This document shows positions 3,148 to 40,456 of a stretch of DNA of 64,000 nucleotides, piece after piece. The DNA comes from a virus: positions 19,736 to 83,735 of IMG/VR virus record IMGVR_UViG_3300038556_000043, one strand, 5' to 3'. A program made the position numbers and the translations under genes. The notes under the pieces are model-generated. The model did no database searches. It saw nothing but the letters and a program-made list of their open reading frames with translations, and had not been told where the DNA came from. The first letter of the stretch is position 1. Each line of letters starts with the position of its first letter.

Positions 3148-3352
3148 CCGCACATTACATTTGCATTAGGCTCCTTGAGCTGCTTGCAATAAATTAATTA
3201 GATATCCATATAGATTCATATTTGGTGAAAGAAAGGGACAAACCCAAACCACAAACAAGCAACAAAACCAAAAAAGCAACAAACTTACAATTGGATTTTT
3301 GGTACTAGAATGTGGGCAAACCACACACAATATTAATCAATTTTCTTATTGA

Positions 3353-3928
3353 TTAAATAAAGCCGTAGGAATTTCTTTGCCTTTCGTACCAGAATGTATT
3401 ACCCAATGTATCTGTTTCGTACATCTTATGATTATACCTAAACATTCTTTCCATGCAAACCTCCCTGTTTGTTTCAAAGTAATGCTTATAAGAATATCGC
3501 AATACCTGCAATCGCCAGAAAAGAACGTGATGCTTTATATCCATAAACCAAATCTTATCCCCTTGCTTATGGTAAATGGGCTTCTCCAAAGGGCTGTAAT
3601 ATCTATCGGTTATGATTGCTCGCATCCTGCGTTGGTCTTCTGCCTTTCTTTTTTCCTCAAAATGATTTTTTCTGAATTCCTTTAATCCAGACGGATCAAA
3701 AAATATTCTGTACAATTCAATCTCAGTTGGAGTTTCATCTTCAAAACGCATATACATCTTTCGATGGTCACCGTCAGCCATTACTATGTAGTGAATAGCA
3801 TTGTCGTCATCAAAAAGCTGCAAGCCGGCATTTAGATGAATACCGGTTTGAATCATATCCTGATCATCGGCAAACAACTGGCGAAGCAGATTAAGCTTCA
3901 TCTGGGCAATTTCCTCATGATTTTCCAT
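3353..3928 (-). CDS. hypothetical protein
   Basis: Likely start MENHEE (3928), overlapping upstream stop. Confidence 0.7.
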   Translation of the reverse strand: MENHEEIAQMKLNLLRQLFADDQDMIQTGIHLNAGLQLFDDDNAIHYIVMADGDHRKMYMRFEDETPTEIELYRIFFDPSGLKEFRKNHFEEKRKAEDQRRMRAIITDRYYSPLEKPIYHKQGDKIWFMDIKHHVLFWRLQVLRYSYKHYFETNREVCMERMFRYNHKMYETDTLGNTFWYERQRNSYGFI

Positions 3929-4334
3929 AATGCTCCAAAATGTAATCCTGCATCCATTGAATGCGTTTTTCAAAAGATTCAAAAAGCTTATCCCAATGAA
4001 TTTCTTGCCAATTCACGTGCATATCATATGGGCAATCAAAAACGTAGCCTTGGTAATTTTTTTGTTTTTGTAATGCCAAATCAATGACTGTGTACACTTC
4101 CGCAGATTTGCTTTTTCTGTGAATATGGTAACAAATTCCGTGTTGCATTGCGTTGTTTTCCAAAAACTTTTCAACAACACTTCCTGACACTTCATTTTGT
4201 TGAAACCATTTTAGGTTTTCGTAAGCATTCTGGTAATCAGCCAAAGCCATGCGCATATAATCTATGAGCTCCAATTTTTTTTCTTGTTTTTCAAGACTGA
4301 GTTGGTTATCTATTTGGGTGTCTTTAATTTCCAT
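3915..4334 (-). CDS. hypothetical protein
   Basis: Likely start MEIKDT (4334). Confidence 0.7.
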   Translation of the reverse strand: MEIKDTQIDNQLSLEKQEKKLELIDYMRMALADYQNAYENLKWFQQNEVSGSVVEKFLENNAMQHGICYHIHRKSKSAEVYTVIDLALQKQKNYQGYVFDCPYDMHVNWQEIHWDKLFESFEKRIQWMQDYILEHYGKS

Positions 4335-4503
4335 CGGTTTTTTGTTTTTCGAGTAATGGGCCGCCATACAATAGTAAATTTTCGCGTTCGGCAAGCTCCC
4401 TGGCTTTCCTTAGCGCATCCTTTTCGCAATCGGTTGTAAACCGGTGCCAGACAAGCGTACCTGGCCCCGGTTTTTGTTTGAATGCCGCTACGTATTTTTG
4501 CAT
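4324..4503 (-). CDS. small hypothetical protein
   Basis: MQKYVAAFKQ..., TAATG coupling at 4503. Confidence 0.65.
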   Translation of the reverse strand: MQKYVAAFKQKPGPGTLVWHRFTTDCEKDALRKARELAERENLLLYGGPLLEKQKTDGN

Positions 4504-4664
4504 TATCCTGTGCGGTTGTGAAAACATTCTTCCAGCATTTCTAATCTTTCCGGATCAATCGTTTCCAATTTGACCAGTTCGCAAAGCTTATCGACCAAAT
4601 CCAATTGCTCCTCTTCGGGCAGCTGCAGAAAGTTCCATACGATTCTGTTTGCTTCTTCGCTCAT
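4503..4664 (-). CDS. 53-aa hypothetical protein (not in track)
   Basis: MSEEANRIVWNFLQLPEEEQLDLVDKLCELV...; ATGA and TAATG overlaps on both sides. Confidence 0.7.
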   Translation of the reverse strand: MSEEANRIVWNFLQLPEEEQLDLVDKLCELVKLETIDPERLEMLEECFHNRTG

Positions 4665-4984
4665 ATCGAGTAGGTAAACTCAATTTTTTTGACTTTGCGC
4701 CATTGCAGATGCTTCTCATTGTTGAGCGCATCTACGATTGCTGTACCGTTCTCAAAACAGCTTTCTATGTTGTTTCCGGAAGAATTCAGGGAAAGAATAG
4801 AAGCATTGGTCAGCGAAACCAAAGAGTAATACTCTCCGGTGTTATTGCTAAAGTCTTCCTGGAAATACACAACCATGTACAAATCTATTTCATCGTGTCT
4901 TATCACTTCCACAAGATCAGAGGTCAGCAGTTTTGTGACTTCTTCCTTTATAGGCACTACTTTGAATTTTTTTTCTGTACTCAT
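4661..4984 (-). CDS. hypothetical protein
   Basis: Likely start MSTEKK (4984). Confidence 0.65.
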   Translation of the reverse strand: MSTEKKFKVVPIKEEVTKLLTSDLVEVIRHDEIDLYMVVYFQEDFSNNTGEYYSLVSLTNASILSLNSSGNNIESCFENGTAIVDALNNEKHLQWRKVKKIEFTYSI

Positions 4985-4994
4985 GATCAATTGG

Positions 4995-5357
4995 TTAAAA
5001 ATGTTTCTCGATATATTCAGCAAGGGATTCAAATGTTTCTCCCCGGTCATTTATGGCCGAAAGCGTAGACTCCATTTGATAGGTAATTCCTGACCATTCC
5101 TCTACTTCTGTAGTAGGGAAACAAGCCACGCCAATTCGTTTTGTCTTGAACAAATCCGGTACTCCCTTAAAAGCAGAGGCTTTAATCCATTCTGCTTTGC
5201 GTTTACTTTGCTTCAAATACAAATCACAAAGCACTCCAAGCACACAATAGCAATCATTGCATTTAAGGTAGTTCTTACCTTGCGTGTACTCACCGGATCG
5301 TAAAGAATGAACCCAGAGTTGTTTTACCTCCGGGTTTATTTTCTGAGTTTCTTCCAT
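4995..5357 (-). CDS. conserved phage hypothetical protein
   Basis: W..SLRSGEYTQG..YL....CYCVLGVLCD motif common in phage early proteins. Confidence 0.75.
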   Translation of the reverse strand: MEETQKINPEVKQLWVHSLRSGEYTQGKNYLKCNDCYCVLGVLCDLYLKQSKRKAEWIKASAFKGVPDLFKTKRIGVACFPTTEVEEWSGITYQMESTLSAINDRGETFESLAEYIEKHF

Positions 5358-5363
5358 CAGCGT

Positions 5364-5534
5364 TTATTCTTTTTTTGATTCGATACATTCACCCAGATAC
5401 AAAAAGCCGCCGCAAACAATGGCAACGAAAAATCTTGAAAACCATTTCTCGTCGCCAGTTGACACGTAAATAAGGCAGTTGACTATAGCTATCACATAAT
5501 TGAATAGCAAAAACGCTTTCAATAAGAACTTCAT
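5364..5534 (-). CDS. 56-aa two-TM membrane protein (not in track)
   Basis: MKFLLKAFLLFNYVIAIVNCLIYVSTGDEKWFSRFFVAIVCGGFLYLG... Confidence 0.65.
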   Translation of the reverse strand: MKFLLKAFLLFNYVIAIVNCLIYVSTGDEKWFSRFFVAIVCGGFLYLGECIESKKE

Positions 5535-5548
5535 ATCAATCAATTTTC

Positions 5549-5824
5549 TTATTTCTCAAAGACAATAATAACGTCTGAATACGTCCATGACTCACTACCG
5601 TATGTGGCTGTGATTGTATTAGCTACTTTGTATCCTTTGGTTCGGTATTGCACAATATCTTTTCGAATTTGTTGCCGCGCAACATCGGCATTTTGTGTGC
5701 TGAAAAAATACGATTGCGTAATAACCGAATGTGCCGGTTGCTGTTGTTTTGTAACGGCTGCAATGCAAAAGATTGACGCCAGAATCAAAATGCAGAGGAT
5801 ACTATTTTTCGTGTTAATTTTCAT
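5549..5824 (-). CDS. signal-peptide/membrane-anchored small protein
   Basis: N-terminal hydrophobic stretch ILCILILASIFCIAAV. Confidence 0.7.
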   Translation of the reverse strand: MKINTKNSILCILILASIFCIAAVTKQQQPAHSVITQSYFFSTQNADVARQQIRKDIVQYRTKGYKVANTITATYGSESWTYSDVIIVFEK

Positions 5825-6242
5825 TGGATTGGATTGCGTTTAATTGTTCACGTTTGATTTTGACAAAAGCCAGAATGTTTTCGGCCACATCTTCTTTTGT
5901 GGCTAAAACATCCAGCTCTTTTTTACTAAATCTGATTCCTAAAAAGTTTGGCATAAAAAGATTGTCGTATTGATACGTATTTAAGCCAAACCATACTTTA
6001 CCAACCGAAGTTGTTCCCATATCCGGAGAAGTGATGTCTTCAATACTGTTTCCCGAAAATCGAAACTTATCCGGCCATACAATAGGCAGTTCTCCCATGG
6101 CACAACCTGCGGTTCCACAGCTTTGAAATCCATCATCAAAATTCCTGTTGTAAAATGCAAAGTCAAATTGCTGATGACCAAGTTTGCCGTTAAGCAAATG
6201 ATCGGCTAGTTTTTCAAGCCGTTCCAAGTGAAATTCTTGCAT
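5814..6242 (-). CDS. conserved phage protein with CGTAGC motif
   Basis: FDFAFY...SCGTAGCAMG. Confidence 0.75.
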   Translation of the reverse strand: MQEFHLERLEKLADHLLNGKLGHQQFDFAFYNRNFDDGFQSCGTAGCAMGELPIVWPDKFRFSGNSIEDITSPDMGTTSVGKVWFGLNTYQYDNLFMPNFLGIRFSKKELDVLATKEDVAENILAFVKIKREQLNAIQSNEN

Positions 6243-6245
6243 GAT

Positions 6246-6344
6246 TTAAAACCAGAAGGTTTGAGTTAACAATTCGAATATGAATTTTATTGTCCAGTAC
6301 AATACATTACCTATTGTCTGGAGGATCCTTTTTAGGATTTTCAT
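6246..6344 (-). CDS. 32-aa amphipathic peptide (not in track)
   Basis: MKILKRILQTIGNVLYWTIKFIFELLTQTFWF fills the gap between two genes. Confidence 0.55.
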   Translation of the reverse strand: MKILKRILQTIGNVLYWTIKFIFELLTQTFWF

Positions 6345-6355
6345 TGACTGGCGAG

Positions 6356-7075
6356 TTAGAGATAGGAAAGGACTTTTGCGCGTAGATCAGCCGTAGAGAA
6401 TGCTTTGCCCCAAACGCCTTCCTGGTATATACAGCAAGCCCTTCCTTCCGAGCTGTGGATATACATTAAATCCGTTCGGTAATCGTAATGAAATTCTAGC
6501 TTTGTATTAGCGGTATAAATCTTAGGTTTTGCTGCGCAGGTTTCAAACGAACAACCTGGTTTAAATCCTCTAATCAAAGCTTGCTTTTCCAAATGTTGTT
6601 TGATTTCATCCGCATTTGCCAGTTCATACCAATGTACCTGTTGATGCGCTATATAACCGTCTCCTGTTGTCGCATTGTAATCGAGAATAAAGCCTTGTTC
6701 GTTAAAGGCATTGATTCGTATTGGTCCCTCTGGGAAATTCTTGTATTTAACCCATTTGCCAACAAAAGAAGCCTCGTGGCGCAACTCTTTCTGTTTTTTA
6801 AGGTTTTCCAAGTACAATTCCCGATCAATCTGCGCAGCAATCAAAGCGCCGGCCACTACCAGTTTTTGCAAATAGGATTTATTGTCTACCTTTTCTTTAA
6901 AGCTTTTGTTCCAGAAGCGCGGCCAATCAAATACGGTAGGTGAAAGGCAATACCTGGCAGCATGCAAGAGTTCTTCATTGTTGTAATCGGCATCATTGGC
7001 AATATTGAAGCCATGCTTTTCAATTTGCTCCATACGTTCGGCTCCGATTAACTGTACCCCTATTGTGTATTTCAT
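6356..7075 (-). CDS. conserved phage protein (ER..QI..HG...EL..AA...WP...GALIAA.IDR family) with C-terminal extension
   Basis: Motif recognised in N-terminal 90 aa. Confidence 0.75.
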   Translation of the reverse strand: MKYTIGVQLIGAERMEQIEKHGFNIANDADYNNEELLHAARYCLSPTVFDWPRFWNKSFKEKVDNKSYLQKLVVAGALIAAQIDRELYLENLKKQKELRHEASFVGKWVKYKNFPEGPIRINAFNEQGFILDYNATTGDGYIAHQQVHWYELANADEIKQHLEKQALIRGFKPGCSFETCAAKPKIYTANTKLEFHYDYRTDLMYIHSSEGRACCIYQEGVWGKAFSTADLRAKVLSYL

Positions 7076-7095
7076 AAATAGTATGTTTTGAAAGT

Positions 7096-7464
7096 TTACG
7101 ATTGATTTTCAGGCTCTTTGAGTTTGTCTTTTGAAAACTCTTCAAATACCAACTGGCCTTTGCAATACTGGTAAAGACCGCCCACAAGATGGTATTTGAA
7201 TGGGTCTTCTTCTTTGTTTACAATCTCAAAATGCAAATCCGGATGCTCTTTGGATTGCCTTATGAAAGCTGGCCAGAGCGTTTTTGCAAAATGCCAGTCC
7301 TTGCATTGGATGCTATGAATGTCGAAATACTCATTCAACTCTCTTACGATTGCGCTTTCAATAGCTTGATATTCATCCATACTGATTTCCGACTCCTTTA
7401 CTTCGCCAGTATCAGTTTTTTCTTCCCTGTAGATGAACATTTCTAAATGATACCAATTAGCCAT
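7096..7464 (-). CDS. hypothetical protein (possible ferredoxin-like fold)
   Basis: 122 aa; W...SKEHPDLHFEI...EED pattern. Confidence 0.7.
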   Translation of the reverse strand: MANWYHLEMFIYREEKTDTGEVKESEISMDEYQAIESAIVRELNEYFDIHSIQCKDWHFAKTLWPAFIRQSKEHPDLHFEIVNKEEDPFKYHLVGGLYQYCKGQLVFEEFSKDKLKEPENQS

Positions 7465-7479
7465 AAATAGTATGTTTTG

Positions 7480-7923: not shown

Positions 7924-7974
7924 AAATCAATTTTGTATATGATTTTTTTTAGTTTGCAAATACACGATCTTAAT

Positions 7975-12322: not shown

Positions 12323-12901
12323 TTAGTATAAATCTTCCGATTTGAGTTCTGGCACCATTGATTCGATTTGTTTGGCATGATAGGCAATAACCGAAGCTTC
12401 TATTCTATCAACAAAACGATTTGTATTGGTAAGAAATCCTTGTATCGGCTTCAAGTTCTTAAATGCGTTGATACCTGCCAGCATTGCTTTTGTCGTAAAA
12501 CAATTGTGGTGTCTGCGACCGGTTACTACAAAACCGGTTTTGACATTGATAGGCTGGTGAACGTAGGTGTTTATACCGTCATCCCACCATACAGCCGCAC
12601 ATAGAATGTATTCTTTTTGTGCGTCTGTTGTATCAGGTTTTACCCTAAGATGTGACAACGCAAATTCGTAATTAACCGAATTATCCGGATCGGCAGTCGG
12701 GCCTACCCATACTGCCATATCAATCAAATCGGTACAATCTTCCCATGACTTTTTGTAGAACTCAAAATCTTCTCCATCAATGACTCCTTCCATGTAACTG
12801 CCATCGTCCGGATGAAGCACAATCACAGGCATTCCTACGTATATGTTGTCAGGAGTTACCTGAGCCAGTTGGCTTACATCTACTGTTTGTATCTGTTGCA
12901 T
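12323..12901 (-). CDS. two-domain phage protein; C-terminal conserved phage domain
   Basis: EYILCAA...GRRH...QGFLTN..RFVDR.EA...LKSEDLY motif; start reassigned to MQQIQT (12901). Confidence 0.75.
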   Translation of the reverse strand: MQQIQTVDVSQLAQVTPDNIYVGMPVIVLHPDDGSYMEGVIDGEDFEFYKKSWEDCTDLIDMAVWVGPTADPDNSVNYEFALSHLRVKPDTTDAQKEYILCAAVWWDDGINTYVHQPINVKTGFVVTGRRHHNCFTTKAMLAGINAFKNLKPIQGFLTNTNRFVDRIEASVIAYHAKQIESMVPELKSEDLY

Positions 12902-12971
12902 ATGTGTATGTGTTAGGTGAGTAAAAAAACAACAAAGCCATGAGCAAAGCCCATAGCCGTAAACCAACCTA

Positions 12972-12987
12972 ACCAAGAGAGCAACAC
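12972..12987 (-). promoter_or_regulatory. conserved 16-nt early-region motif, copy 1
   Basis: + strand ACCAAGAGAGCAACAC, 1 mismatch to consensus, ~70 nt upstream of 12901 ATG. Confidence 0.6.
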
Positions 12988-15021: not shown

Positions 15022-15048
15022 GAAAAAGAAAAGGGGCACTAGGCCCCT
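15022..15048 (-). terminator. intrinsic terminator
   Basis: AGGGGC-CTAGT-GCCCCT-TTTCTTTTT directly after the 15053 stop. Confidence 0.8.
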
Positions 15049-15052: not shown

Positions 15053-15538
15053 TTATGCTGCTGCGTCGGCTTCAACCATTGTAGGCTGAGCAACCGGCTT
15101 TGCTGCGCGCTCTGTCTTTGGAGTGTCGCAACGACGTTCCAGTTCAGAGAAGTTCAGCTTTGTGTGTACCCATTCGTTGAACTCATCAACGATCTGTAAA
15201 AGACCGCCAGCTACGAACGTTTCCCGGTTCAGGTTTTGGATAGCACCATTCTCATCGGAGTACTGGTTGATTACAAACATTCCGGGAAGTTCTTTTCCGT
15301 CTTTGTCCTTACCGTAGCCAATGGCGTTTCCGGCAATCTTCTTACCTGCAAGCTTGCTTGGTGTGTCAACATTGGCTTGGCTCATCAGGTTGTCAACCTG
15401 GGCTTTGCCCATGCGGAAGGCCATACGGTTTTTGTTACCGTCAACGGCTTCTCCCCAGAAGCTGTCAAGGATGGATCCTTCTTTAGACTTGGAAACGTTG
15501 ATAGAGGCAATCGCGAATACTAATCCTTGCTTTGTCAT
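15053..15538 (-). CDS. hypothetical protein (possible ssDNA-binding/OB-fold)
   Basis: Start MTKQGL (15538); own upstream motif and terminator; beta-rich N-terminus and low-complexity tail. Function is a guess. Confidence 0.7.
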   Translation of the reverse strand: MTKQGLVFAIASINVSKSKEGSILDSFWGEAVDGNKNRMAFRMGKAQVDNLMSQANVDTPSKLAGKKIAGNAIGYGKDKDGKELPGMFVINQYSDENGAIQNLNRETFVAGGLLQIVDEFNEWVHTKLNFSELERRCDTPKTERAAKPVAQPTMVEADAAA

Positions 15539-15669
15539 AACGGTAAAATTTAAAAGGGTTTTTGGGTTGGAAAACTGTGGTTTACAGCAGGTTACATTTT
15601 GATTACCGCCAATGTGAGGATAGTCAAACCCTTTATTGAAGAGCAAGACAACCTGAGCAAACCAGATAA

Positions 15670-15685
15670 ACAAAGAGAGCAACAC
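15670..15685 (-). promoter_or_regulatory. conserved 16-nt motif, copy 2
   Basis: + strand ACAAAGAGAGCAACAC. Confidence 0.65.
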
Positions 15686-15697
15686 AAGGCGTATTGC

Positions 15698-15877
15698 TCA
15701 GAAATAAAGTGTGGAATAAAGAGCGTGAAGAATGACACAAGACAAACCTTCCTGGGCAAATCGCTCAGAAAGGTATTGTCTCATTCCTTCGGTGGTAGTC
15801 TTGGCCAGCTTGACCAATACACCATTGGAATCAATCGCGGCAATGTACATAGGTGCAATAAGTGATTGCATTGCCAT
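15698..15877 (-). CDS. 59-aa hypothetical protein (not in track)
   Basis: MAMQSLIAPMYIAAIDSNGVLVKLAKTTTEGMRQYLSERF... Confidence 0.55.
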   Translation of the reverse strand: MAMQSLIAPMYIAAIDSNGVLVKLAKTTTEGMRQYLSERFAQEGLSCVILHALYSTLYF

Positions 15878-15941: not shown

Positions 15942-15985
15942 ACAAAACAAAAAACCCCGACAGGTTTGCTAGGCCTATCGGGGTC
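15942..15985 (-). terminator. intrinsic terminator
   Basis: ACCCCGATAGG-CCTAGCAAA-CCTGTCGGGGT-TTTTTGTTTTG. Confidence 0.8.
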
Positions 15986-16200
15986 AATCCTCTTTCGTAT
16001 TTTCGTCCGGTGATGAGGCAGAGTTTGAACTCTCGCACCGGCTTATCTGTCAAGACCAGTTACTATCTGGCAATTCAAGATTAACATAGCTGCCAGAACA
16101 GCTATGTTAATCCTCTATACGCTGCTGATTTTCCTTGCTTTCAGCGAGAGTGCGTAGACTCAACTATTCAGTGCTGTTTTTGGGACAGCCAACCTATTTC
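15945..16200 (-). ncRNA. candidate structured ncRNA (~250 nt)
   Basis: No credible ORF; serial hairpins incl. perfect 14-bp GATTAACATAGCTG/CAGCTATGTTAATC; bounded by motif copy 3 and a terminator. Confidence 0.5.
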
Positions 16201-16210
16201 AATCAGAAAG

Positions 16211-16226
16211 ACAAAGAGAGCAACAC
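16211..16226 (-). promoter_or_regulatory. conserved 16-nt motif, copy 3
   Basis: + strand ACAAAGAGAGCAACAC. Confidence 0.65.
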
Positions 16227-16405
16227 TAATCAACATCAGTGACAGAACATGCCACGAATGGAGTGAGTAGTGTTGCACCAATCATCATTACGAACCAATA
16301 CGGATCATTTGTCTCAATTGCCATGACAATCGATACTGCCATAATCATGATCGTCAGGATAATCATTGTAAATACTTCGGTGTATTTGTATACTATATTT
16401 TTCAT
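16226..16405 (-). CDS. 59-aa two-TM membrane protein (not in track)
   Basis: MKNIVYKYTEVFTMIILTIMIMAVSIVMAIETNDPYWFVMMIGATLLTPFVACS... Confidence 0.65.
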   Translation of the reverse strand: MKNIVYKYTEVFTMIILTIMIMAVSIVMAIETNDPYWFVMMIGATLLTPFVACSVTDVD

Positions 16406-16443
16406 AGCTGTTTGTAAGGCAGGGGTTTGATTGCCTCAGAACT

Positions 16444-16459
16444 ACAAAAAGAGCAACAC
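16444..16459 (-). promoter_or_regulatory. conserved 16-nt motif, copy 4
   Basis: + strand ACAAAAAGAGCAACAC (1 mismatch). Confidence 0.6.
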
Positions 16460-16473
16460 AAGCATTACCCTAG

Positions 16474-16512
16474 GTGAGTAAGTGAGTAAGTGAATGCTAA
16501 GTGAGTAAGTGA
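16474..16512. repeat. tandem GTGAGTAA repeats at the strand switch
   Basis: GTGAGTAA-GTGAGTAA-GTGAATGCTAA-GTGAGTAA-GTGA. Confidence 0.8.
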
Positions 16513-16679
16513 TTTTTTCTTGACACCCCTAACCTCCGATCAGCCACCAAAACCCGATTTCATTCTACTTTCATTCCAATACCCCTACCCCTATTTTTCT
16601 AGGTGTCACTTCTGACCATACACACTAAGATGATTTTAGATATTTGGTTTTGGGTGTGGGTATGGATGGTTTGTAATTT

Positions 16680-16711
16680 TTTGGTGATATTAATTAATTA
16701 TCTTATTTTTG
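16680..16711 (+). promoter_or_regulatory. host-type promoter for the packaging operon
   Basis: TTTG, 20-nt spacer, TATTTTTG; AATTATCT extension. Confidence 0.7.
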
Positions 16712-16730
16712 GGAAAATCAATTATGCGTT

Positions 16731-17195
16731 ATGGATTACAGGAAATTGGATACAATGTATTTATGGTTGACCGGTAGCAGCATTGATATGGATAAGGAGA
16801 AGGGAAAATTGAAGAAGTTCCCGTTTCGCATTCCGGTAAAGTCACAGGACCAGGTTGAGTACGTGAAAGCTTGCATGGATTTAAACCCTGACATTTTAAA
16901 TGTATGGGTATTCAGTGCTGATTACAAGGAGTTGGTTAAGATGCGCAGTTGGGAGGAGTGGGAAAAATTGAAGCGGTACCGTTGGGATTTAAATACAATG
17001 GGGAGGTTGTTGGAGTTATGGGGGGATCCGAATAAACCGGGAGAATTCAGACCAAAGGGAGGCGCAATTAACTCTTTCAATGACACGGCCAACTATTACA
17101 AGAGTCAGCGCACCGCTATTCAGATGCGTAATGCAAAAGTAGATTCATCTGCTTCGCCGGTAAAAAAACAGAAGTGGAAAAGTTTTAAGGCCTGA
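16731..17195 (+). CDS. hypothetical protein
   Basis: 154 aa, first gene of + strand module. Confidence 0.75.
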   Translation: MDYRKLDTMYLWLTGSSIDMDKEKGKLKKFPFRIPVKSQDQVEYVKACMDLNPDILNVWVFSADYKELVKMRSWEEWEKLKRYRWDLNTMGRLLELWGDPNKPGEFRPKGGAINSFNDTANYYKSQRTAIQMRNAKVDSSASPVKKQKWKSFKA

Positions 17196-17229
17196 TATAA
17201 GAAAATTTATTAATATTAATTTTTGTTGT

Positions 17230-17868
17230 ATGGGATTCAAAGGATGGAATAATCTGCCTGGGTTAAAAGTGACAAACGCCAATGGCTTTTCTGATCTTCA
17301 AATGCCGGTACAAAACCAGAGTGAAAACAAGAAGGTAAAGAATGCTACCAAGCACACTTACGATGGAATTGTTTTTGATTCGAAGCTAGAAATGCTGGCA
17401 TACCAGCGATTGAAGGGATACGGGTTTGATTTCAACATGAAAGATGTGATTGAACTGGTAAAAAGCTTTATGTTCAACGGAAAGCTTGTCAAGAGCATTA
17501 CCATGGAACCCGATTTTAATTTGGATGTGCATGGTGTGCATATCATTGTTGAGACAAAAGGTAATCCGAACGATGTGTACCCCTACAAGTTGAAGCTGTT
17601 GAAGCAAAAGATAATGCAGGACAATTATGTGTATGAGTACGGGGATACGGGCACTACGATAATTTTGTTTATCCACCTGCAGAAGCAATTGGATGACTTT
17701 TTTGAAAACCTGCATGCGTTTAAAAAGACTGCCAATCCCCAAAATTTAAAATACCTGATTGAAAAATATTCCCATTATGAATCAGAGGCGACAGTAAAAC
17801 GCAGGAAGAAAAAAAGCAAGGAATACAGGGAAAAGAAAAAACTCGAAAAAAATGGCGCTCAAATTTGA
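17230..17868 (+). CDS. DUF1064-like PD-(D/E)XK nuclease
   Basis: YDGIVFDSKLE...EPDF...IVETKG. Confidence 0.75.
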   Translation: MGFKGWNNLPGLKVTNANGFSDLQMPVQNQSENKKVKNATKHTYDGIVFDSKLEMLAYQRLKGYGFDFNMKDVIELVKSFMFNGKLVKSITMEPDFNLDVHGVHIIVETKGNPNDVYPYKLKLLKQKIMQDNYVYEYGDTGTTIILFIHLQKQLDDFFENLHAFKKTANPQNLKYLIEKYSHYESEATVKRRKKKSKEYREKKKLEKNGAQI

Positions 17869-18487
17869 AATAAAAAAAGGGAAGGCAGAATTCAAGGAGG
17901 AGTATCTGATCCACCGCGAATTTGCTGACTTGTACGAACTGGACCAGAGCGAAGACAAGGATTTTGCTCAGCGGTTGTTTACCGTTGTCTACATGATTGG
18001 GGACGAAGAAAGTTCTTTACGTAACATGGTTGAGTCTGTCAAATGGGAATATGCCATTAACAACTGCCAGATTACTACCGAAGAACTTTCCCTCGCCCGT
18101 CCCTGCCTGGAAGAAGCCATTGGCCTGTATTCGTACTTGAACAATACCGCAGAGTACCGTTCTATCCAATCACTGGAACGTGTGCTTAACAGCCTCAATG
18201 ACCAGCTTGCCGAAATTACTCCTTCGGCTATCAACGTCAAGAAAAAAATAAATGTAGGTACCAAAAACGATCCTCAATACGAAGAAATTGAGGAAATAAA
18301 AGATAACTACAATGATATCCAACGGCTGACGGATTTGATTGAAGATACCCGGTCGAAGCTTTCCAAGATGAAGGAGGAGTACAATAAAAATAAGTTGGCC
18401 GGCACATTGCGGGCTGACAAAGAGCCAGGAGGTCTAGCTACACGAAAGCTCACCAATCCTGCCCTGAATCAGAATTTTAAACGTTAA
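17852..18487 (+). CDS. putative terminase small subunit / packaging-associated protein
   Basis: Helical, coiled-coil protein translationally coupled to TerL; position only. Confidence 0.5.
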   Translation: MALKFEIKKGKAEFKEEYLIHREFADLYELDQSEDKDFAQRLFTVVYMIGDEESSLRNMVESVKWEYAINNCQITTEELSLARPCLEEAIGLYSYLNNTAEYRSIQSLERVLNSLNDQLAEITPSAINVKKKINVGTKNDPQYEEIEEIKDNYNDIQRLTDLIEDTRSKLSKMKEEYNKNKLAGTLRADKEPGGLATRKLTNPALNQNFKR

Positions 18488-20550
18488 TGGCGCATTCCTT
18501 AGACCCCGAATTTCTTTCGGGACGAACACCGCCAAAGATGGACCCGGAAAGCCTTCAGTACATAAACTGGTGGGATGAGCAAATCAACCGGTGTCTGTTT
18601 GGTTTTAAGAAGAACGGAAGAAAAGTCACCGGGAGTTATTACCATTATTTGAATTTCTATGGCATGGAAATCCTGGAAGGTAAAGGAGAGAATAAGATTC
18701 GCCGTTACTTTCATCCCCATCCTTGTAATACTGACGAAGCTGTTTTTCAAGCTATGGAAGATTGTCATAGAAGTTGGCAAACTTTTATGATGTTTACCTC
18801 GGGTGGTACCGGAAAATCTTCAATGGTGGCTTCTTATGTTGACCGCGAATTTACATTCTTTCCCCGATCGCAGTCAATCATTACCGCATCGACAGATGTT
18901 CCGGCCACTCAGCTGATGAAGTTTGTCGATGACTCGTTGATGAACAAACCTAAGGCTTTCCAGCACGAAATCTATCCTTACAAAAAGTATCAGCTAATGG
19001 GTTCCCAAACCCGGCGTAAGGATGGTACCGTAGATCCCGAACTCTCTTACAACTCCACAATTGAGAAAATAGTATTTGGCGACAACTCTGGTGCGGTTCG
19101 TTCCAAGCGTCCTACCCTTCTGGTAATGGAAGAAATTGGTAACTGGGTCGGAGGCGCGTCGCTTCTGGATTGCTACAATGCTTGCGTCGCCCGTGGTAAA
19201 ATCGCTGGTGAATCTTCGTGTTTCTACATGATGATCGGTACCGGTGGCCACACGCGAAACAACGTTATCAAAGACGTTCAGGAAATGATTGACCATCCGG
19301 ATGCATACAACCTGTATCTGTGTGATCCGTGGAATTGGGGTAAGAAAAACATATTCTTCATTCCTGCTTACAAAAAGCGTTGGGGATACTTTGAAGAAAC
19401 CGGCATTATGGATGAGGTTGGAGCCAAAGCAGCTTACGATGCCGAACGGGAAAAGAAGAAAGATTCTTACAAGGCCTTGCTTACGCTCAAGCGGGAATTT
19501 CCTTATACCCTGGAAGAATGTTTCTTGAAAGAGGTGACTGGAGGTTTGTTTTATCCTAACAAGCTGGAAGAACAATTCCGGATGATTCAGAACCGGAAAG
19601 AAAATAGTATCCCTGAACCTCGTCGCGGCTGGTGGAAAGAAAACAAAATCACTGGCATTCCTGATTTTATTGAAAAAGCGGACGGTCCTGTCTGGATGTA
19701 CGAAGAACCTCACCGGGAAATTCCCAAAGGAGCCCGCAGAAACACTACGGCTGCCATACTTGGCCAGGTGCCCGACAGATTGTATGTAGGAGGTTATGAC
19801 GGTATAGACCAGACAAAGAAAGATTCGCAAACTGATGGCGGCTCAAAGGGAGCTCTCTGGATTAAAAAGCGCACTACCGGCATTTCCACTACCAATAACA
19901 CCTATGTCATAAAGATCAACTGGCGACCCGAAGGAGATATTGACGAGATCAATGAGCAGGTTCTTTTGAGTGCGATTGCTTACAACTGCAAGATAAATAT
20001 CGAGTACACCAAGATATCGGTCAAAAAATATTTCGAATCCAAAGGATATCGGCATCTGCTGATGGCAAGGCCCAAAGCCGTTGCCGGCAACAGCTTTGAT
20101 GACCAGATGTTAAAGCCGGATTTAATTGGTACCGTTCCCACTCCGCAGAATATCAACTACGGCATTCAGCTTTTGCAATCGTATGTGTTTAATTATTACC
20201 AGAACATTTACGATGAAGAATTCTTGAAACAGCTTGCCGAATTTACCATAGAAGACAAAGGCAAGTACGATTTGATTATGGCGGCCTTGTGGTGTGAGGT
20301 TGGTGACGAAGATATGCCAATTTACATCAATCGTGAATACGTTGAACAATACGTTGACGTAGGTTACTACGATGACCCGATAACCGGAGAATTGAAATAC
20401 GGTATCATTCCTCCGCAGGAACAAATCACTGCCAGCGACTTTGTGCGCCAGTCAGTCAATCCGTTTGGCAACGATCCGGGGTATGAACCTGATCCTGTCA
20501 CCGAGCATCCGTTTTTAATTGATGCTCACTTATATTATCAAGCTTCGTAA
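18487..20550 (+). CDS. terL: terminase large subunit
   Basis: Walker A SGGTGKS, Walker B LLVMEE, IGTGG coupling motif, nuclease YVGGYDGID. Confidence 0.9.
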   Translation: MAHSLDPEFLSGRTPPKMDPESLQYINWWDEQINRCLFGFKKNGRKVTGSYYHYLNFYGMEILEGKGENKIRRYFHPHPCNTDEAVFQAMEDCHRSWQTFMMFTSGGTGKSSMVASYVDREFTFFPRSQSIITASTDVPATQLMKFVDDSLMNKPKAFQHEIYPYKKYQLMGSQTRRKDGTVDPELSYNSTIEKIVFGDNSGAVRSKRPTLLVMEEIGNWVGGASLLDCYNACVARGKIAGESSCFYMMIGTGGHTRNNVIKDVQEMIDHPDAYNLYLCDPWNWGKKNIFFIPAYKKRWGYFEETGIMDEVGAKAAYDAEREKKKDSYKALLTLKREFPYTLEECFLKEVTGGLFYPNKLEEQFRMIQNRKENSIPEPRRGWWKENKITGIPDFIEKADGPVWMYEEPHREIPKGARRNTTAAILGQVPDRLYVGGYDGIDQTKKDSQTDGGSKGALWIKKRTTGISTTNNTYVIKINWRPEGDIDEINEQVLLSAIAYNCKINIEYTKISVKKYFESKGYRHLLMARPKAVAGNSFDDQMLKPDLIGTVPTPQNINYGIQLLQSYVFNYYQNIYDEEFLKQLAEFTIEDKGKYDLIMAALWCEVGDEDMPIYINREYVEQYVDVGYYDDPITGELKYGIIPPQEQITASDFVRQSVNPFGNDPGYEPDPVTEHPFLIDAHLYYQAS

Positions 20551-35503: not shown

Positions 35504-35506
35504 TAT

Positions 35507-36286
35507 ATGCATTATCCCAAAAAACGTCCAAAACTTGTTTCAGGTTCTACCATACCCCAAACAAGTACAAGCTCCGCTGGCGGTGCTGGCGGGGGTGCGG
35601 CTGGCGGCATTATTTCCATGGGTGCCGATTTGGTAGGCAAAGGCATTGATGAATTTGTTCCTGACAAGAATATGCGTTACGGTATCTCCTACAGACCTGT
35701 AGGGGCTACCGTAGGCAAGTCTGCTGCCAAAGGCGCGGCAATGGGTGCAGCTGTCGGTTCGGTTGTTCCCGGCATTGGTACGGCTATCGGTGCGGCTGTT
35801 GGTGGCGTGGGAGGTGCGGTTGTCGGGTTGATCAAAGGCAATAAGGAGAAAAAGAAAGCCGAGGAAGCCGTTCGCAAGATGGATGAAATCTCTGCCAAGG
35901 CTTATGATCGCCAGTCACAAGCTGCTTATTCGGCGTTGCCAAGTTCTTCTATGGGATTTTCAGCTTACGGCAAGAATGGCATGATGATTCCTAAAGCCTA
36001 CAATTTTGGTCCCATTTCTTATTTGAAAGAAGGCGGCGCCATTATTCTGGGCGGCCAGCGTCACAGCCAGGAAGGAAAGTTGGGCAAAGGCAATCCCGGC
36101 ATTGATACCGAAACTGGCGAAAAGCTGGTTGAGGTGGAAGCCAAGGAAATGCTTTTGACCATGGATCAGTCTGATAAGGTTCACAACCTGATGGAACAAT
36201 ACTATGAAAATCCTTCGGATGATGTGCTTTTTGATTTGGGCAGTGTTGCCAGAGATATTTTATTAACCGCTAAAAAACAAAAGTAA
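35507..36286 (+). CDS. virion cargo/ejection protein with glycine-zipper TM segment
   Basis: GAAMGAAVGSVVPGIGTAIGAAVGGVGGAVVG; EGG...G.RHS...EVEAKE. Confidence 0.7.
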   Translation: MHYPKKRPKLVSGSTIPQTSTSSAGGAGGGAAGGIISMGADLVGKGIDEFVPDKNMRYGISYRPVGATVGKSAAKGAAMGAAVGSVVPGIGTAIGAAVGGVGGAVVGLIKGNKEKKKAEEAVRKMDEISAKAYDRQSQAAYSALPSSSMGFSAYGKNGMMIPKAYNFGPISYLKEGGAIILGGQRHSQEGKLGKGNPGIDTETGEKLVEVEAKEMLLTMDQSDKVHNLMEQYYENPSDDVLFDLGSVARDILLTAKKQK

Positions 36287-36705
36287 TGGCCTTTTATCGC
36301 AAAAAACCGGTAGTAATTGAAGCAATCACCTTTGATGAATTTGTACAATACGGCAAAGAGAACGGTGGCAACATTGTCAACGGCATGCCCTGGAGTTTCA
36401 AATACAAAGGACATCCGGTTACACATCATTCTGATGAGGCATATTTGATTCCTTCTTTGGAAGGTACGGTAAAATTTACCAGAGAAGATATGCTCATTAC
36501 CGGAGTGGACGGAGAAATCTACCCTTGTAAAATAAGCATCTTTAAAAAAACCTATACAAAGGCCAAAGAACCGATGCCGGCCGAAGTAAAAGAGGCTTAT
36601 AAGTATATGGAAGATTGTCACAAGGATTTAGGTTTTATGGGTTCTCCTGAATACTACGAGAAAAAGAAAATCGTAGACAATTACAATCAAAGCAAAAAGA
36701 AATGA
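36286..36705 (+). CDS. conserved phage protein (KKPVVIEA family), moron-like
   Basis: RKKPVVIEA...IPSLEG...ITGVDGEIYPCK..IF.KTY. Confidence 0.8.
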   Translation: MAFYRKKPVVIEAITFDEFVQYGKENGGNIVNGMPWSFKYKGHPVTHHSDEAYLIPSLEGTVKFTREDMLITGVDGEIYPCKISIFKKTYTKAKEPMPAEVKEAYKYMEDCHKDLGFMGSPEYYEKKKIVDNYNQSKKK

Positions 36706-36923
36706 AACCGAAAGGAAACATTCTGATTCGTTCCGGAAAAGACGGAAAGCCATTGGCCCGGACACAATCCGGAGCCCGTATTTATTCGATCAAGGATACA
36801 AACAAGTTAATGAATTTGGCCAAAAAAGCCACTGATCGAGAATCTACCATTGCATTAGGCAAAGCAATGTTAGAATCAACTATTGCCCAAAACAATAAAC
36901 CAACCCAGTACACCAATGAATGA
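36702..36923 (+). CDS. small crAss-like cargo-cluster protein
   Basis: GARIYSIKDTNKLMNLAKKA...LGK pattern. Confidence 0.65.
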   Translation: MKPKGNILIRSGKDGKPLARTQSGARIYSIKDTNKLMNLAKKATDRESTIALGKAMLESTIAQNNKPTQYTNE

Positions 36924-37290
36924 AGTAATGCAACAATTGGCTGCCGTAGCGCAGCAGTATATGCAATCGCAGTCTCCGGAGGCTGCCATGCAACTGATCC
37001 AGATGGCGGCTCAATCGCAAGACCCGCAATTACTGATGATGGTAGCCGATAGTATTGCCGCGACTGTCAGCCAAGGCGCGGGCGATCCTGCGGCCGCTGG
37101 TGGTGATCCTGCCGCTCAGGGTGGCGCTCCTATGGGACAAAACGGAATGCAGGTTCCAACCATGGGCGGCGGTGGCCAGCAACCCATGTACGCAAACGGT
37201 GGTAAGCTGACTGCCATTGGCAAAATGAAGGCAAAACGTGCAGCAAAGCATGGTGCATCCCACAAGCCAAACACGATTGCCGCCAAATAA
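36916..37290 (+). CDS. Gln/Ala/Gly-rich crAss-like cargo-cluster protein
   Basis: MNEVMQQLAAVAQQ...QQPMYANGGKL. Confidence 0.7.
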   Translation: MNEVMQQLAAVAQQYMQSQSPEAAMQLIQMAAQSQDPQLLMMVADSIAATVSQGAGDPAAAGGDPAAQGGAPMGQNGMQVPTMGGGGQQPMYANGGKLTAIGKMKAKRAAKHGASHKPNTIAAK

Positions 37291-37308
37291 TCCGGCTTGT
37301 CAGACGTA

Positions 37309-37340
37309 AAAAAAAGGGACTTATGCAAGTCCCTTTTTTA
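37309..37340. terminator. bidirectional terminator between convergent genes
   Basis: AAAAAAAGGGACTT-ATGC-AAGTCCCTTTTTT. Confidence 0.85.
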
Positions 37341-37356
37341 ATATCGATCAATCTTC

Positions 37357-38055
37357 TTATAAGTCAGCTGGAGATATAGTATCTGTTGCTGATCTGTCTT
37401 CGGTAATGTTTCCTGTATCCGGAGATTGCGCAGCAGTATCCACGCCAGCACGATAATCTCCAAACACTTCCGAGCCATTATGTGCCGGCATAGCTTTACT
37501 TTCTTCTTTGATTTCTTCTACCGATTCAGAAAGTACCCGTATTGATTCCAAAAACTCGTCTGAATGTTCTCCTGGTGTTCCTGAAATTACCGGAGGATAT
37601 TCGGGCATTTCTTTTGGCGTAACCGCATTGATTCCTTCAATAAATGAGTTACCCAACGCCTCAACAAAGTTAGTAACGGATTTTACATTGGCCGGATCTA
37701 CTACCGGGACGTCAGCTATTTTAGGAATGTCGGCTATGTTTCCCGTTTCTTCATAGCAAGAAAAAGATACTTCCGCTTTCTGCACCTGAAAATGATCGGT
37801 ATTGTTTATGTAGGATCTTCTGATTTTATTGGCCGCCAGAATTCTACCGGTAAATCCAACTACATCAATATGAGAAATTTTGTGCTGATGAATCTCACCG
37901 TCAAAAGATACTATTTTTTCTTTCACACTTGTCTCTCCTTTAAACTCGTATCCCTGATCGGTCAGCGTGTGTTTGAAAATTTCAAGGGCTTGTTCATCGT
38001 TTGCGGCCGCTTTAACTAGCACAATAAGACTTGCATTAAAAATCGCTTTTTTCAT
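37357..38055 (-). CDS. hypothetical acidic protein
   Basis: 232 aa, last gene of antisense island. Confidence 0.7.
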   Translation of the reverse strand: MKKAIFNASLIVLVKAAANDEQALEIFKHTLTDQGYEFKGETSVKEKIVSFDGEIHQHKISHIDVVGFTGRILAANKIRRSYINNTDHFQVQKAEVSFSCYEETGNIADIPKIADVPVVDPANVKSVTNFVEALGNSFIEGINAVTPKEMPEYPPVISGTPGEHSDEFLESIRVLSESVEEIKEESKAMPAHNGSEVFGDYRAGVDTAAQSPDTGNITEDRSATDTISPADL

Positions 38056-38065
38056 TTTGGGTTAA

Positions 38066-40003
38066 TTAAATGGTTAAATCAAAATTTAATTCCAGCATTG
38101 GTAAATCCGCTTTTATCGGCATTCGTATTTGTAATGTACCTGGTTTTTCAGATTCGGCTTTCACCGCTTCTTTCGCCAGTTCCTCTTGCTCTTTTCTTTG
38201 TTGAGCAACACGTTTTCCTTCTTCCTCGAAATCGCTAATCACCTGATTGGCGTCAAGGTCTTTGATTCTTTTTAGCATATCATCATCGGTCGGTTTGGTG
38301 GCAGGGGTTGGTTGTACAACTGGTTCTGGTTCAATTGTGGTAGCTGGTTCTGGGTTGGTTGGGTTACGCTTTTTGGTAAGTGTAAATTCTCCCATTTCCT
38401 CGTTTACCTTTTTCTGCTCTTTGGCGTGTTCTTTTTCTTTCTTGGCTCCTTTCTTGGTTTGCTCGGGTAAGACAAACCCTTTGATCCTGGCAATGTGCTT
38501 ATTGAACAAGATCCAGATATTTTCATCTTTAAATTCAAAATGTATAGTCCCTTTCTGGTACACTTTGATTTTGAAGAATCCCCAATCATAGCTGCCGCCA
38601 TATACCTTTTCCTGTTTGTGCATTACCGGATATTTGCCTTCTTCGTATAGTTGCTGGTATTTTTTTGTAGCAGTTCCGTGTCTGGCTTCTTCGTAGTCTT
38701 TAAAAACCTCAAAACCGGTATTATGCTCAATAATAATTTCGTGTCTAAGAAAGGTGTCAAGATTGATTATTTTCTTGTAATTGGAATTTGTGATGTAGCA
38801 AAGACCTTTTACAAAATCTTCGATCATATCAAAATTCCTGCCCCAAAGCGTACTGATTTTATTTCCATCGTTGTACTTTTCCTTGGGACACATATCGGGA
38901 ACCACGAATTTTTTGCCCAGCAAATACACATCGTTGGTTTTCCATCCTGGCAAACCATACCGGTTTTCGTGATGGTATTTGGTTACATTGTCAAACGATT
39001 CCACCAGCGCAGCATCCATACGGCTCGCATGAGTCAGGATTACAATACGAATCATATTGTAAACATTCTTCATGGTGAACGGGTACTGCTGCTGCTTTTC
39101 AACAAACCTGTTCAGTTCTTCTTTCAGCTTTTGGGTTACATATTCGGTCATATCCAGTTTGTTGAATATGTAGGTCCACGCTTGCTTTTGGAGCTCTCTT
39201 TTGAAATCGTCTTTGTTGAGCGTAATCTGCGTATTGCCTTGCTTGTTATAGCAGGTAAACCCAAACGAACCATTGAAAAAACCTTTTGTCAAGCGATAGA
39301 TCTCCGATCCTGCGCTAGCGACTTCTTCAAACTTTTTGACTGCTGAGACATAGCAGTTTACAGTTTCACGGACAAAATTGTGCTTTACCAATCCCGATTG
39401 CTGAATATCTTCCGGTTCTTCGTCCATGTAAAAACCATCGAATTCAGTGTCTTTTGTTTGGCCCGTTTTTGTCAGCTTGATAAATCCGATATCTACTGCA
39501 GTCTTGCGTTCGGCGTATGAAAAACAATCTGCAAGGTTTGATATTTCGCCGTTGTACTGGTTAATCGTTCTCTTTAGTTCTATTTGCTTTTGGGTGCCTT
39601 CTCCCTTATAGCTTCTATAGTTTACCGTGTTCCAGTTGCACAAGGCAAGAATCCGGCAATTGGCAGGGGCAATATTTATCGCGTGTAGAATGTGATCTTC
39701 GTCAGCCGAAAACGGCGGGTTCATAATGATCATATCTATGTGCGAAACTTCTTCGGCCCGAACTTTTAGAAAGTCACTGCCGATTAGCTTGCACTTTGAT
39801 TGTACTATTTTCCGCAATCGTTCATCAATCTCGCAGCCTAAAACTTCCTGAGCCCCCTGTAATTTGGCGAAGTCTAAAATATTTCCGGTTCCACAAGAAG
39901 GGTCAAAAATGATTTTTCCAACAAGGATTTCGTTTTTGACCATTTTTTCCAGTACATCTACCGGCGTAGGATACAGGTCTTTGTTGTCATTGAATATACT
40001 CAT
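38066..40003 (-). CDS. N6-adenine DNA methyltransferase with DUF4942-like C-terminal domain
   Basis: Motif I FDPSCGTG, motif IV NPPF (gamma order), YPTP; ENR...GWKTN in C-terminal half. Confidence 0.85.
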   Translation of the reverse strand: MSIFNDNKDLYPTPVDVLEKMVKNEILVGKIIFDPSCGTGNILDFAKLQGAQEVLGCEIDERLRKIVQSKCKLIGSDFLKVRAEEVSHIDMIIMNPPFSADEDHILHAINIAPANCRILALCNWNTVNYRSYKGEGTQKQIELKRTINQYNGEISNLADCFSYAERKTAVDIGFIKLTKTGQTKDTEFDGFYMDEEPEDIQQSGLVKHNFVRETVNCYVSAVKKFEEVASAGSEIYRLTKGFFNGSFGFTCYNKQGNTQITLNKDDFKRELQKQAWTYIFNKLDMTEYVTQKLKEELNRFVEKQQQYPFTMKNVYNMIRIVILTHASRMDAALVESFDNVTKYHHENRYGLPGWKTNDVYLLGKKFVVPDMCPKEKYNDGNKISTLWGRNFDMIEDFVKGLCYITNSNYKKIINLDTFLRHEIIIEHNTGFEVFKDYEEARHGTATKKYQQLYEEGKYPVMHKQEKVYGGSYDWGFFKIKVYQKGTIHFEFKDENIWILFNKHIARIKGFVLPEQTKKGAKKEKEHAKEQKKVNEEMGEFTLTKKRNPTNPEPATTIEPEPVVQPTPATKPTDDDMLKRIKDLDANQVISDFEEEGKRVAQQRKEQEELAKEAVKAESEKPGTLQIRMPIKADLPMLELNFDLTI

Positions 40004-40030
40004 GGTTGGGGATTTTTTTTGTAATATTAA

Positions 40031-40318
40031 TTAATTTTCTGATTTAGATAGCATTACAGAAGGCATAGAAATTTCCTGCCCATTGGTTATCACACGTGTC
40101 ATGTTGTTTTCGTCAACCTCGGCAACGATTCCTTCCAGGTTAGTATACACGTTGTTTTCATCCGGAATCTGCATTTCAACAAAATCCAGTACTGCAAAGT
40201 CTTGAGTGGCAAACCGGGGAACATTGGTCAGAACTTGCTCTGTTTTAAAAATGCGTTTTGCAATTACATAACCCATTGTGATTACGGCTACAAAAGCCAG
40301 AGAAGATAGAAAGATCAT
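40031..40318 (-). CDS. small membrane-anchored protein
   Basis: N-terminal TM MIFLSSLAFVAVITMGYVI. Confidence 0.7.
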   Translation of the reverse strand: MIFLSSLAFVAVITMGYVIAKRIFKTEQVLTNVPRFATQDFAVLDFVEMQIPDENNVYTNLEGIVAEVDENNMTRVITNGQEISMPSVMLSKSEN

Positions 40319-40368
40319 AAGTTATTGTTTGAGTTTGGTTTAAAGATTGAAAATCACTAATATAAATA

Positions 40369-40385
40369 AATTATCTTATATTTGC
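40369..40385 (+). promoter_or_regulatory. late promoter for cargo genes
   Basis: AATTATCT-TATATTTGC. Confidence 0.7.
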
Positions 40386-40440
40386 TATTATTACGGCTTT
40401 TGGCTGTCACAAAAACACACAAGCCAGCCAAACCACAAAA

Positions 40441-40456
40441 ACAAAAAAAGCAACAC
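40441..40456 (-). promoter_or_regulatory. early-type motif copy upstream of the MTase island
   Basis: + strand ACAAAAAAAGCAACAC (2 mismatches), ~125 nt upstream of 40318 ATG in minus orientation. Confidence 0.45.

Follow-up and report, generated by a model that had tools for sequence, protein, structure and literature searches.

How crAss-type injected RNA polymerases (RNAPs) find their start sites is an open question, and the study of phage phi14:2 found no motif common to the regions upstream of its early transcripts (bioRxiv 10.1101/2020.03.07.982082, Drobysheva et al.). The question arises again in a 64,000-nt stretch of viral DNA, hereafter the window, in which a 16-nt word, GTGTNGCTCTYTTTGT, recurs ahead of minus-strand genes. 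The window covers positions 19736–83735 of the 104.6-kb IMG/VR record IMGVR_UViG_3300038556_000043, which we label G000 as a whole, and which is a very divergent crAss-like phage with a terminase (TerL) at most 25% identical to that of any named Crassvirales phage. A first-pass annotation of the window had proposed that the word is the promoter of an injected RNAP, or an operator, and that an antisense DNA methyltransferase (MTase) operon within the structural genes belongs to the early regulon. We find that the underlying observation is real and stronger than was reported there. The feature is conserved and most likely an early promoter, and its assignment to the injected polymerase is plausible by analogy with phi14:2. 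Coordinates below refer to the window unless preceded by G000 or by the label of another contig.

An oriented, intergenic word heads minus-strand units

Read on the minus strand, GTGTNGCTCTYTTTGT has six copies in the window, the sixth of them degenerate. All are written as ACAAAGAGAGCAACAC on the plus strand, so that the reading in the direction of the genes begins GTGTTGC. The first-pass annotation had placed the copies at 15670 and 16211 (exact), 12972 and 16444 (one mismatch), 40441 (two mismatches) and about 3268 (degenerate), and every coordinate and mismatch count is correct, as are the extra GAGCAA hexamers at 12942, 13001, 13007, 15641 and 15655 and the CCAAACCACAAA shared by the sites at 3244 and 40428. 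Matches with at most three mismatches number 5 in the window against 0.61 expected, a count reached in 0 of 100 shuffles. The degenerate copy has a position weight matrix score of 22, compared with 31–36 for the other copies. Outside the window there are two further clear copies, at G000 8321 and 12986, and a doubtful one at G000 100366–100381, which is at the same time the 3' arm and T-run of a terminator hairpin (G000 100366–100420; 15 bp, −22.9 kcal/mol). This weakest copy may be a terminator that resembles the motif by chance alone.

A relaxed 13-nt core, [GT]TG[TG][TGC]GCT[CT][CT][CT]TT, matches the minus strand of the whole record nine times and the plus strand not once, whereas we estimate the expectation at about 0.14 per strand. 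All nine matches are intergenic, although intergenic DNA makes up 9% of the record, and all face minus-strand units. The single orientation and non-coding location noted earlier hold record-wide, and the word is not equally frequent in coding sequence or on the two strands. From the 5' base of the motif to the next minus-strand ATG the window copies measure 54, 86, 138, 147 and 173 nt. The flanks of the copies are mutually unrelated, and the motif is thus not part of a longer dispersed repeat.

The copies point leftward into units of the early, or replicative, arm of the genome, which occupies the minus strand at record 1315–36140 and diverges from a plus-strand structural arm at record 36466–94169. 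Three of the units, at the junction of the arms, are short and end in terminators, further copies head operons of 4–10 kb, and one copy lies outside this arm, ahead of the antisense MTase island among the structural genes (Table 1). Several copies directly follow a terminator or overlap the preceding stop codon, and one lies only 13 nt before an ATG.

The signal is a contiguous block followed by a purine at a fixed distance

Over 25 non-redundant copies, drawn from G000 and the four related phages described below, the information reads G1 T2 G3 T4 n G6 C7 T8 Y T10 Y T12 T13 T14 G15 T16 and is restricted to positions 1–16 and position 23. G6, C7, T8, T10, T12 and T13 are invariant or nearly so, with a pyrimidine at positions 9 and 11 (position 9 is C or T, never A), and GTGTNGCT is the invariant part of the word. 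TTGCT is present in 16 of the 25 copies. TTTG is kept in G000 and in the relatives L096 and L112, in two of the seven copies of L111 and in none of the four of L113. Positions 17–22 are pyrimidine-rich and variable, with pyrimidines at 21–22 in 22 of the 25, and position 23, 7 nt after the word, is a purine in 24 of the 25 (G in 19, A in 5; p about 6e-9); it is G in all six window copies. Such a pyrimidine–pyrimidine–purine step, at constant spacing from the block, has the appearance of a transcription start, and we infer that position 23 is +1. The following 20–40 nt are T-rich and A-poor (47% T, 16% A). On the 5' side, positions −60 to 0 show nothing conserved and an unremarkable composition, with no more than 0.3 bits at −11 to −1 and 0.4 bits at position 0.

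Several known classes of signal were tried against the copies and set aside. A sigma-54 promoter does not fit, the columns 12 nt 5' of the GC of TTGC being A/T-rich and without GG. A hairpin promoter of the N4 kind was rejected as well, because only about 10 of the 25 copies pair with their upstream flank, with irregular stems (about 5–16 bp) and loops (3–15 nt); the mean fold z-score is −1.1. The word serves as 3' arm and T-run of a terminator at G000 100381 and partly at 15670–15699, and this reading fails for most copies. An operator or parS site is disfavoured since the word lacks self-complementarity and all 25 copies are oriented with transcription, and an iteron was rejected on sequence grounds. 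As a −7 element of Bacteroidota sigma-A the word fails at position 9, which is never A, and by the loss of TTTG from most L111 and all L113 copies; the matching −33 arrangement, TTG-N17-21-TAnnTT, is not enriched upstream of the copies.

Within 150 nt upstream, the 25 copies together have 2 host-type −7 boxes (TAnnTTTG), where 1.3 are expected. With no such enrichment, the motif-headed units have no other visible promoter, and the word itself is probably not transcribed. The earlier statement that none of the copies has a TAnnTTTG box thus stands statistically, and needs qualifying at the MTase island, where a near-box, TATATTAG, lies 61 nt before the ATG.

Related phages keep the word and its orientation

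TerL homologues at 57–64% identity were found on five metagenomic contigs. Four of these extend into the early arm, and each has the word there alone and in early-arm orientation; the fifth contig, L097, which has structural genes only, carries no copy. The motif scan over the whole record and its relatives that had been suggested with the first-pass annotation thus recovers the same word in the same orientation in four relatives, and all 25 copies of the five phages are oriented with transcription. The placement also corresponds: the divergent junction has two or three copies and the 161/167-aa gene is preceded by one, as is, in G000 and L111 alike, the pair formed by an approximately 100-aa gene and Sak4 after ParB. 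At the 161-aa gene, similarity between the phages starts at the motif and runs through the leader, and the sequence 5' of the motif is unrelated.

A promoter is indicated because the word has a fixed orientation, is intergenic only, is conserved in four relatives without its flanks and is followed by a purine 7 nt downstream, and because no host-type promoter lies upstream while a different, host-type class marks the opposite, structural arm. The comparative evidence therefore supports the first half of the proposal "promoter, or operator"; an operator is less likely, given the lack of dyad symmetry and an orientation that follows transcription.

More distant sampling gave little. A scan of IMG/VR for the exact word returned 87 contigs with one match each, which is chance level, and no contig with multiple copies. 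Exact peptide words of the 161-aa protein or of TerL found no close relative in IMG/VR. The GTDB genomes contain a single relative, at 25% identity, and the named phages, with TerL at no more than 25%, are too distant to help.

The leader of the 161-aa gene is itself of interest. It is about 125 nt long (15538–15663, minus strand; L111 3545–3675; L096 7417–7542), contains blocks conserved in three phages, such as ACTATCCTCACATTGGCTGGTAATCAAAATGTA, and may be a regulatory RNA or a site of autoregulation. The 161-aa protein has no family match, and a weak atlas lead to a phage single-stranded DNA-binding protein (0.86) was not usable.

A different, host-type signal marks the structural arm

Six plus-strand units carry a host-type box; the polymerase gene is among them, as are the first gene of the structural arm and the gene that follows the portal region. 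The relatives have similar boxes ahead of structural units and keep TATATTTG in the genuine host-type promoters, and on the early strand the whole early arm of L111 has no more than two boxes in intergenic DNA. The signal types of the two arms are mutually exclusive.

A second repeated element, the AT-rich block ATAAGAAAATTGATTRAT, has about 35 copies at no more than four mismatches, which lie in both arms and are mostly sense to the downstream gene. In the late units the block stands immediately 5' of TATATTTG. Other copies reach from a TAA stop codon over 12 nt and through the next ATG, a placement that might mark leaderless starts or a translation signal. The block is absent from the four relatives, in which the motif is retained; the loss of the one and the keeping of the other fit a conserved, phage-encoded reader of the motif.

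A gp66-type RNA polymerase domain is encoded among the virion genes

The structural arm encodes a protein of 4,643 aa in a single giant open reading frame (ORF). With the help of 12 homologous giant proteins a profile was made of its residues 2450–3550, and this profile matches gp66, the virion RNAP of phi14:2 (6VR4_A, E 4.4e-28), across the catalytic motif. Single-sequence searches of the ORF against PDB, Pfam and PHROGs gave no match, and the profile alone found 6VR4. By analogy with gp66, the giant protein is a candidate reader of the motif. Its homologues range from 3,600 to 5,500 aa, and a zincin-like HEGTH is present at residue 1004.

We detected no sigma70 r2/r4 domains in the record and no recognisable transcription factor among about 45 early-arm proteins and ORFs scanned. 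The T7-RNAP Pfam domain had no match in the record either, in a search that was uninformative since its control also gave no match.

In phi14:2 the early class comprises the whole replicative arm. Its transcription is carried out by gp66, which is injected and resists rifampicin, while the middle and late genes are read by the host RNAP from sigma-70-like promoters; abundant early non-coding RNAs arise at the head of the early arm (bioRxiv 10.1101/2020.03.07.982082). G000 resembles this phage in its divergent replicative and structural arms on opposite strands, in its two-barrel RNAP with DFDxD encoded among virion genes, and in host-type promoters before structural and "gene expression" units, including the RNAP gene. 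Its early arm likewise begins with short non-coding units, and the unit of about 250 nt that follows motif copy 2 resembles the early non-coding RNAs of phi14:2. Given the same layout and the same kind of polymerase, the simplest reading of the word is an early promoter read by the virion polymerase. The motif-headed units include replication, recombination and methylase genes, so that the "early" genes of the first-pass annotation have to be taken as the whole replicative arm, as in phi14:2. The two phages differ in the sharp 16-nt word and +1 purine that mark the early units here, no common early motif having been found in phi14:2, in the RNAP, which in G000 forms a single domain of a 4,643-aa protein, and in the integrase of the G000 phage.

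We therefore propose the following model. The word GTGTNGCTCTYTTTGT would be recognised as a block at about −22 to −7 of an early promoter specific to the phage, and a pyrimidine-rich spacer of 6 nt would separate it from the initiating purine, in most copies G. This promoter would drive leftward, minus-strand transcription of the early-arm units and of the antisense MTase island. Its reader would be the gp66-type RNAP domain of the 4,643-aa protein. As in phi14:2, the virion would carry this protein and deliver it together with the DNA. The structural and late units would then be transcribed by the host RNAP from separate TATATTTG-type promoters. That the word is a phage-specific early promoter seems to us likely. 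The full statement, an early promoter that is also read by the injected polymerase, draws for its second part on the analogy with phi14:2, and here we put the chances at about even.

The MTase island may belong to the same regulon, as judged from one copy with two mismatches, the weakest of the clear copies, which sits in the 5' leader of the plus-strand gene starting at 40461; the island has a near host-type promoter as well.

Two better-known phage systems help to place the signal. The early promoters of phage N4 form a small regular DNA hairpin and are read by a T7-like virion RNAP delivered with the DNA. Here too a few oriented copies unlike host promoters head the early region, and a virion polymerase that arrives with the DNA is the proposed reader, but the stems and loops are irregular and the polymerase belongs to the two-barrel family. 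T7-type phage promoters consist of one contiguous oriented block of about 16–23 nt beside an initiating G, with no bipartite −35/−10 structure. The word likewise is a single oriented block near a predicted initiating G that recurs before transcription units; its sequence is unrelated, and a poorly conserved 6-nt spacer separates block and +1.

Alternative explanations and points against the model

A number of observations weigh against an early promoter read by the virion polymerase. No RNA run contains this phage, so that the start site, the timing and the polymerase are all ones that we infer. The heading of minus-strand units holds for those listed in Table 1, but the island at 45505–46382 and most of the distal replicative genes have no motif, nor do many minus-strand gaps. 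The word is absent from relatives with TerL at about 30% identity, which offer too few intergenic regions for a de novo motif search, from phi14:2, and from the antisense islands beside the RNAP gene of the relative L133. As noted, the early transcripts of phi14:2 have no common upstream motif, and its gp66 is active in vitro on denatured DNA only (bioRxiv 10.1101/2020.03.07.982082). In a temperate phage, a promoter that needs only a virion protein would require an extra route for induction. Finally, the word has a partial likeness to the host −7 box in its 3' part, TYTTTG, and a likeness to boxA in its core, GCTCTTT.

Chief among the rivals, and unlikely in our view, is a reading by the host polymerase, unaided or helped by a factor. 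The word would then be a weak variant of the −7 element with an upstream extension, or the docking site of a phage or host activator beside a weak −7, akin to the MotA-box middle promoters of T4, and the units would be host-dependent early or middle genes. Positions 8–15 (TCTYTTTG) do match TAnnTTTG apart from the A, and the predicted +1 falls 8 nt after G15, near the host geometry, but this −7-like part is the least conserved across the relatives, with TTTG lost in L111 and L113, while the invariant GTGTNGCT has no host counterpart. The host is evidently a Bacteroidota-type organism, as the late promoters and integrase type of the phage indicate. The true host-type boxes of G000 look different and sit on the other arm, and the same phages retain TATATTTG where a genuine host-type promoter is used. 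There is no −33 element and no upstream conservation. Because phi14:2 early starts lack a motif, a sharp motif may suggest a sigma or activator system, and a temperate phage needs early promoters independent of virion proteins. Against such a system stand the lack of a detectable sigma domain in the record and of a recognisable transcription factor in the early arm, and a phage-made activator could not serve the very first units at the junction.

Two further explanations leave the word without a promoter function. It is improbable that the word is where a lysogeny repressor, a ParB-like protein or an iteron-binding replication initiator docks. In favour of this, the integrase and the provirus record mean that the early units must somehow be silenced, one early-arm gene encodes a ParB-like protein, several copies have extra TTGCTC half-words nearby, and the relatives have a RepL-like gene antisense in the early arm. 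Yet the word has no dyad symmetry, its orientation is tied to transcription throughout, and its copies are scattered over the genome with no iteron array; RepL was not detected in G000, so this candidate reader is not common to all, and a docking site would leave the units without any promoter. Slightly less probable still is an RNA element in the early leaders, either a boxA/nut-like antitermination signal or a processing or binding site. The core G6 C7 T8 Y9 T10 Y11 T12 T13 (GCUCUUU in RNA) resembles GCUCUUUA, the boxA core that NusB/NusE bind in rrn operons and lambda nut sites, and it too stands at the head of long terminator-containing operons. Such an element would allow read-through of terminator-like hairpins, of which the early arm has 36 where 16.3 are expected, and strict orientation suits an RNA signal as well as a DNA signal. 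A boxA needs a promoter upstream, however, and none is apparent within 150 nt of the copies, nor, for the first copy at the arm junction, within 270 nt. The copies that directly follow a terminator or overlap a stop codon and the one 13 nt from an ATG are also at odds with it, as are the lack of a boxB-like partner hairpin at a fixed distance and the conserved purine at position 23, which after pyrimidines is typical of a start site.

Genome context and feature coordinates

The G000 record is classed as a provirus and comes from an algae-associated metagenome. Its minus-strand arm holds many small genes of unknown function and also encodes a sliding clamp, a Sak4-like annealing protein, a ParB-like protein, an RNase H and several DNA methylases. 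The plus-strand arm holds the terminase, portal-region, capsid-region, virion and RNAP genes. A third stretch, at the right end of the record, has more minus-strand genes, one of which may be a thymidylate synthase, as read from its N-terminal sequence. Scans of the window for tRNA and Rfam families gave no match.

A tyrosine integrase (Arm-DNA-bind_5/Phage_integrase) is encoded at G000 40–1326, outside the window at the far end of the early arm, and L111 likewise has one at the far end of its early arm (18034–19293). The G000 terminase is listed on a 684-kb contig, and a Logan contig of the same phage (105,886 nt) stops 156 nt from the integrase. Together with the provirus class, these observations point to temperate crAss-like phages, and the phage appears to be temperate.

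Some neighbouring genes deserve mention. A small early-arm protein (G000 2728–3012, outside the window; L114 2845–3078) has a precomputed Acb2/Tad1-hairpin Pfam match and is a candidate anti-CBASS/Thoeris sponge. The RepL-like gene lies antisense within the early arm at L095 5546–6034 and L096 5657–6250, with a host-type TTATATTTG box upstream in L095, and could be a lysogeny or maintenance gene. On L133, antisense genes flank the giant RNAP gene on both sides (914–2884 and 16286–18500) and include NOV_C and PIN_12 domain proteins (defence-like morons). The terminase of L113 (10001–13129; 1,042 aa) has Hom_end/LAGLIDADG matches, which indicate an intein or homing endonuclease insertion.

Table 1. 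Positions of the motif copies, the units that they head and other signals (window coordinates unless stated).
Feature	Position	Strand	Details
Motif copy 1	16444–16459	−	GTGTTGCTCTTTTTGT; first early-arm unit at the divergent junction; predicted +1 G 16437
Target of copy 1, 59-aa ORF	16226–16405	−	ATG 54 nt downstream of the motif
Motif copy 2	16211–16226	−	exact; overlaps stop codon of the 59-aa ORF; predicted +1 G 16204
Non-coding unit after copy 2	15948–16204	−	about 250 nt; no credible ORF; no Rfam or tRNA match
Intrinsic terminator	15948–15985	−	closes the non-coding unit begun at copy 2
Motif copy 3	15670–15685	−	exact; heads the 161-aa gene (15053–15538); predicted +1 G 15663
Terminator of the 161-aa gene	15032–15048	−	the gene's own
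Motif copy 4	12972–12987	−	1 mismatch; predicted +1 G 12965
Operon after copy 4		−	about 9.5 kb, small genes; first gene 192 aa, 12323–12901
Degenerate motif copy	3267–3282	−	TTGTTGCTTTTTTGGT; heads the unit begun by an RNase H-like gene (2609–3109); predicted +1 G 3260
MTase-island motif copy	40441–40456	−	2 mismatches; predicted +1 G 40434
MTase island	37357–40318	−	three genes (95 aa; 645-aa MTase/DUF4942; 232 aa), antisense within the structural arm
Giant ORF	46637–60568	+	4,643 aa; DFDVD at residue 2833; own promoter host-type TATATTTG at 46608–46615
Host (Bacteroidota)-type −7 box, TAnnTTTG	16704–16711	+	TATTTTTG; before the first structural-arm gene
TATATTTG boxes with AT-rich block upstream	22920, 35496, 40377, 46608, 60654	+	always before plus-strand units
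AT-rich block ATAAGAAAATTGATTRAT	3349, 5552, 3097, 17197, 22905, 35474, 40379, 46610, 60639		
AT-rich block ATAAGAAAATTGATTRAT elsewhere	G000 3073, 4166, 12460, 19624, 99498, 100456		among about 25 more places in the record
Motif copies in relatives			L095/L111, 7 (0 on the other strand); L096, 3; L112, 2; L113, 4

Implications

Phage-specific promoters, the class to which this signal most likely belongs, are a known kind. The word may be the first promoter of a crAss-type virion RNAP (two-barrel, gp66-like) to be defined by sequence, with a 16-nt block at −22 to −7 and a +1 G. Such promoters, conserved across a temperate environmental crAss-like clade, would be silent in the prophage, where the virion enzyme is missing, until the polymerase gene is expressed from its own host-type promoter. 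We hold this wider proposal as a real possibility, at somewhat less than even confidence. Should the host polymerase read the word instead, it would represent a new non-canonical promoter or activator class in Bacteroidota phages. The clade-conserved word and its predicted start base provide a concrete template for tests with a recombinant polymerase domain, and with the word the early regulon of related phages could be predicted, their anti-restriction methylases and non-coding RNAs included.

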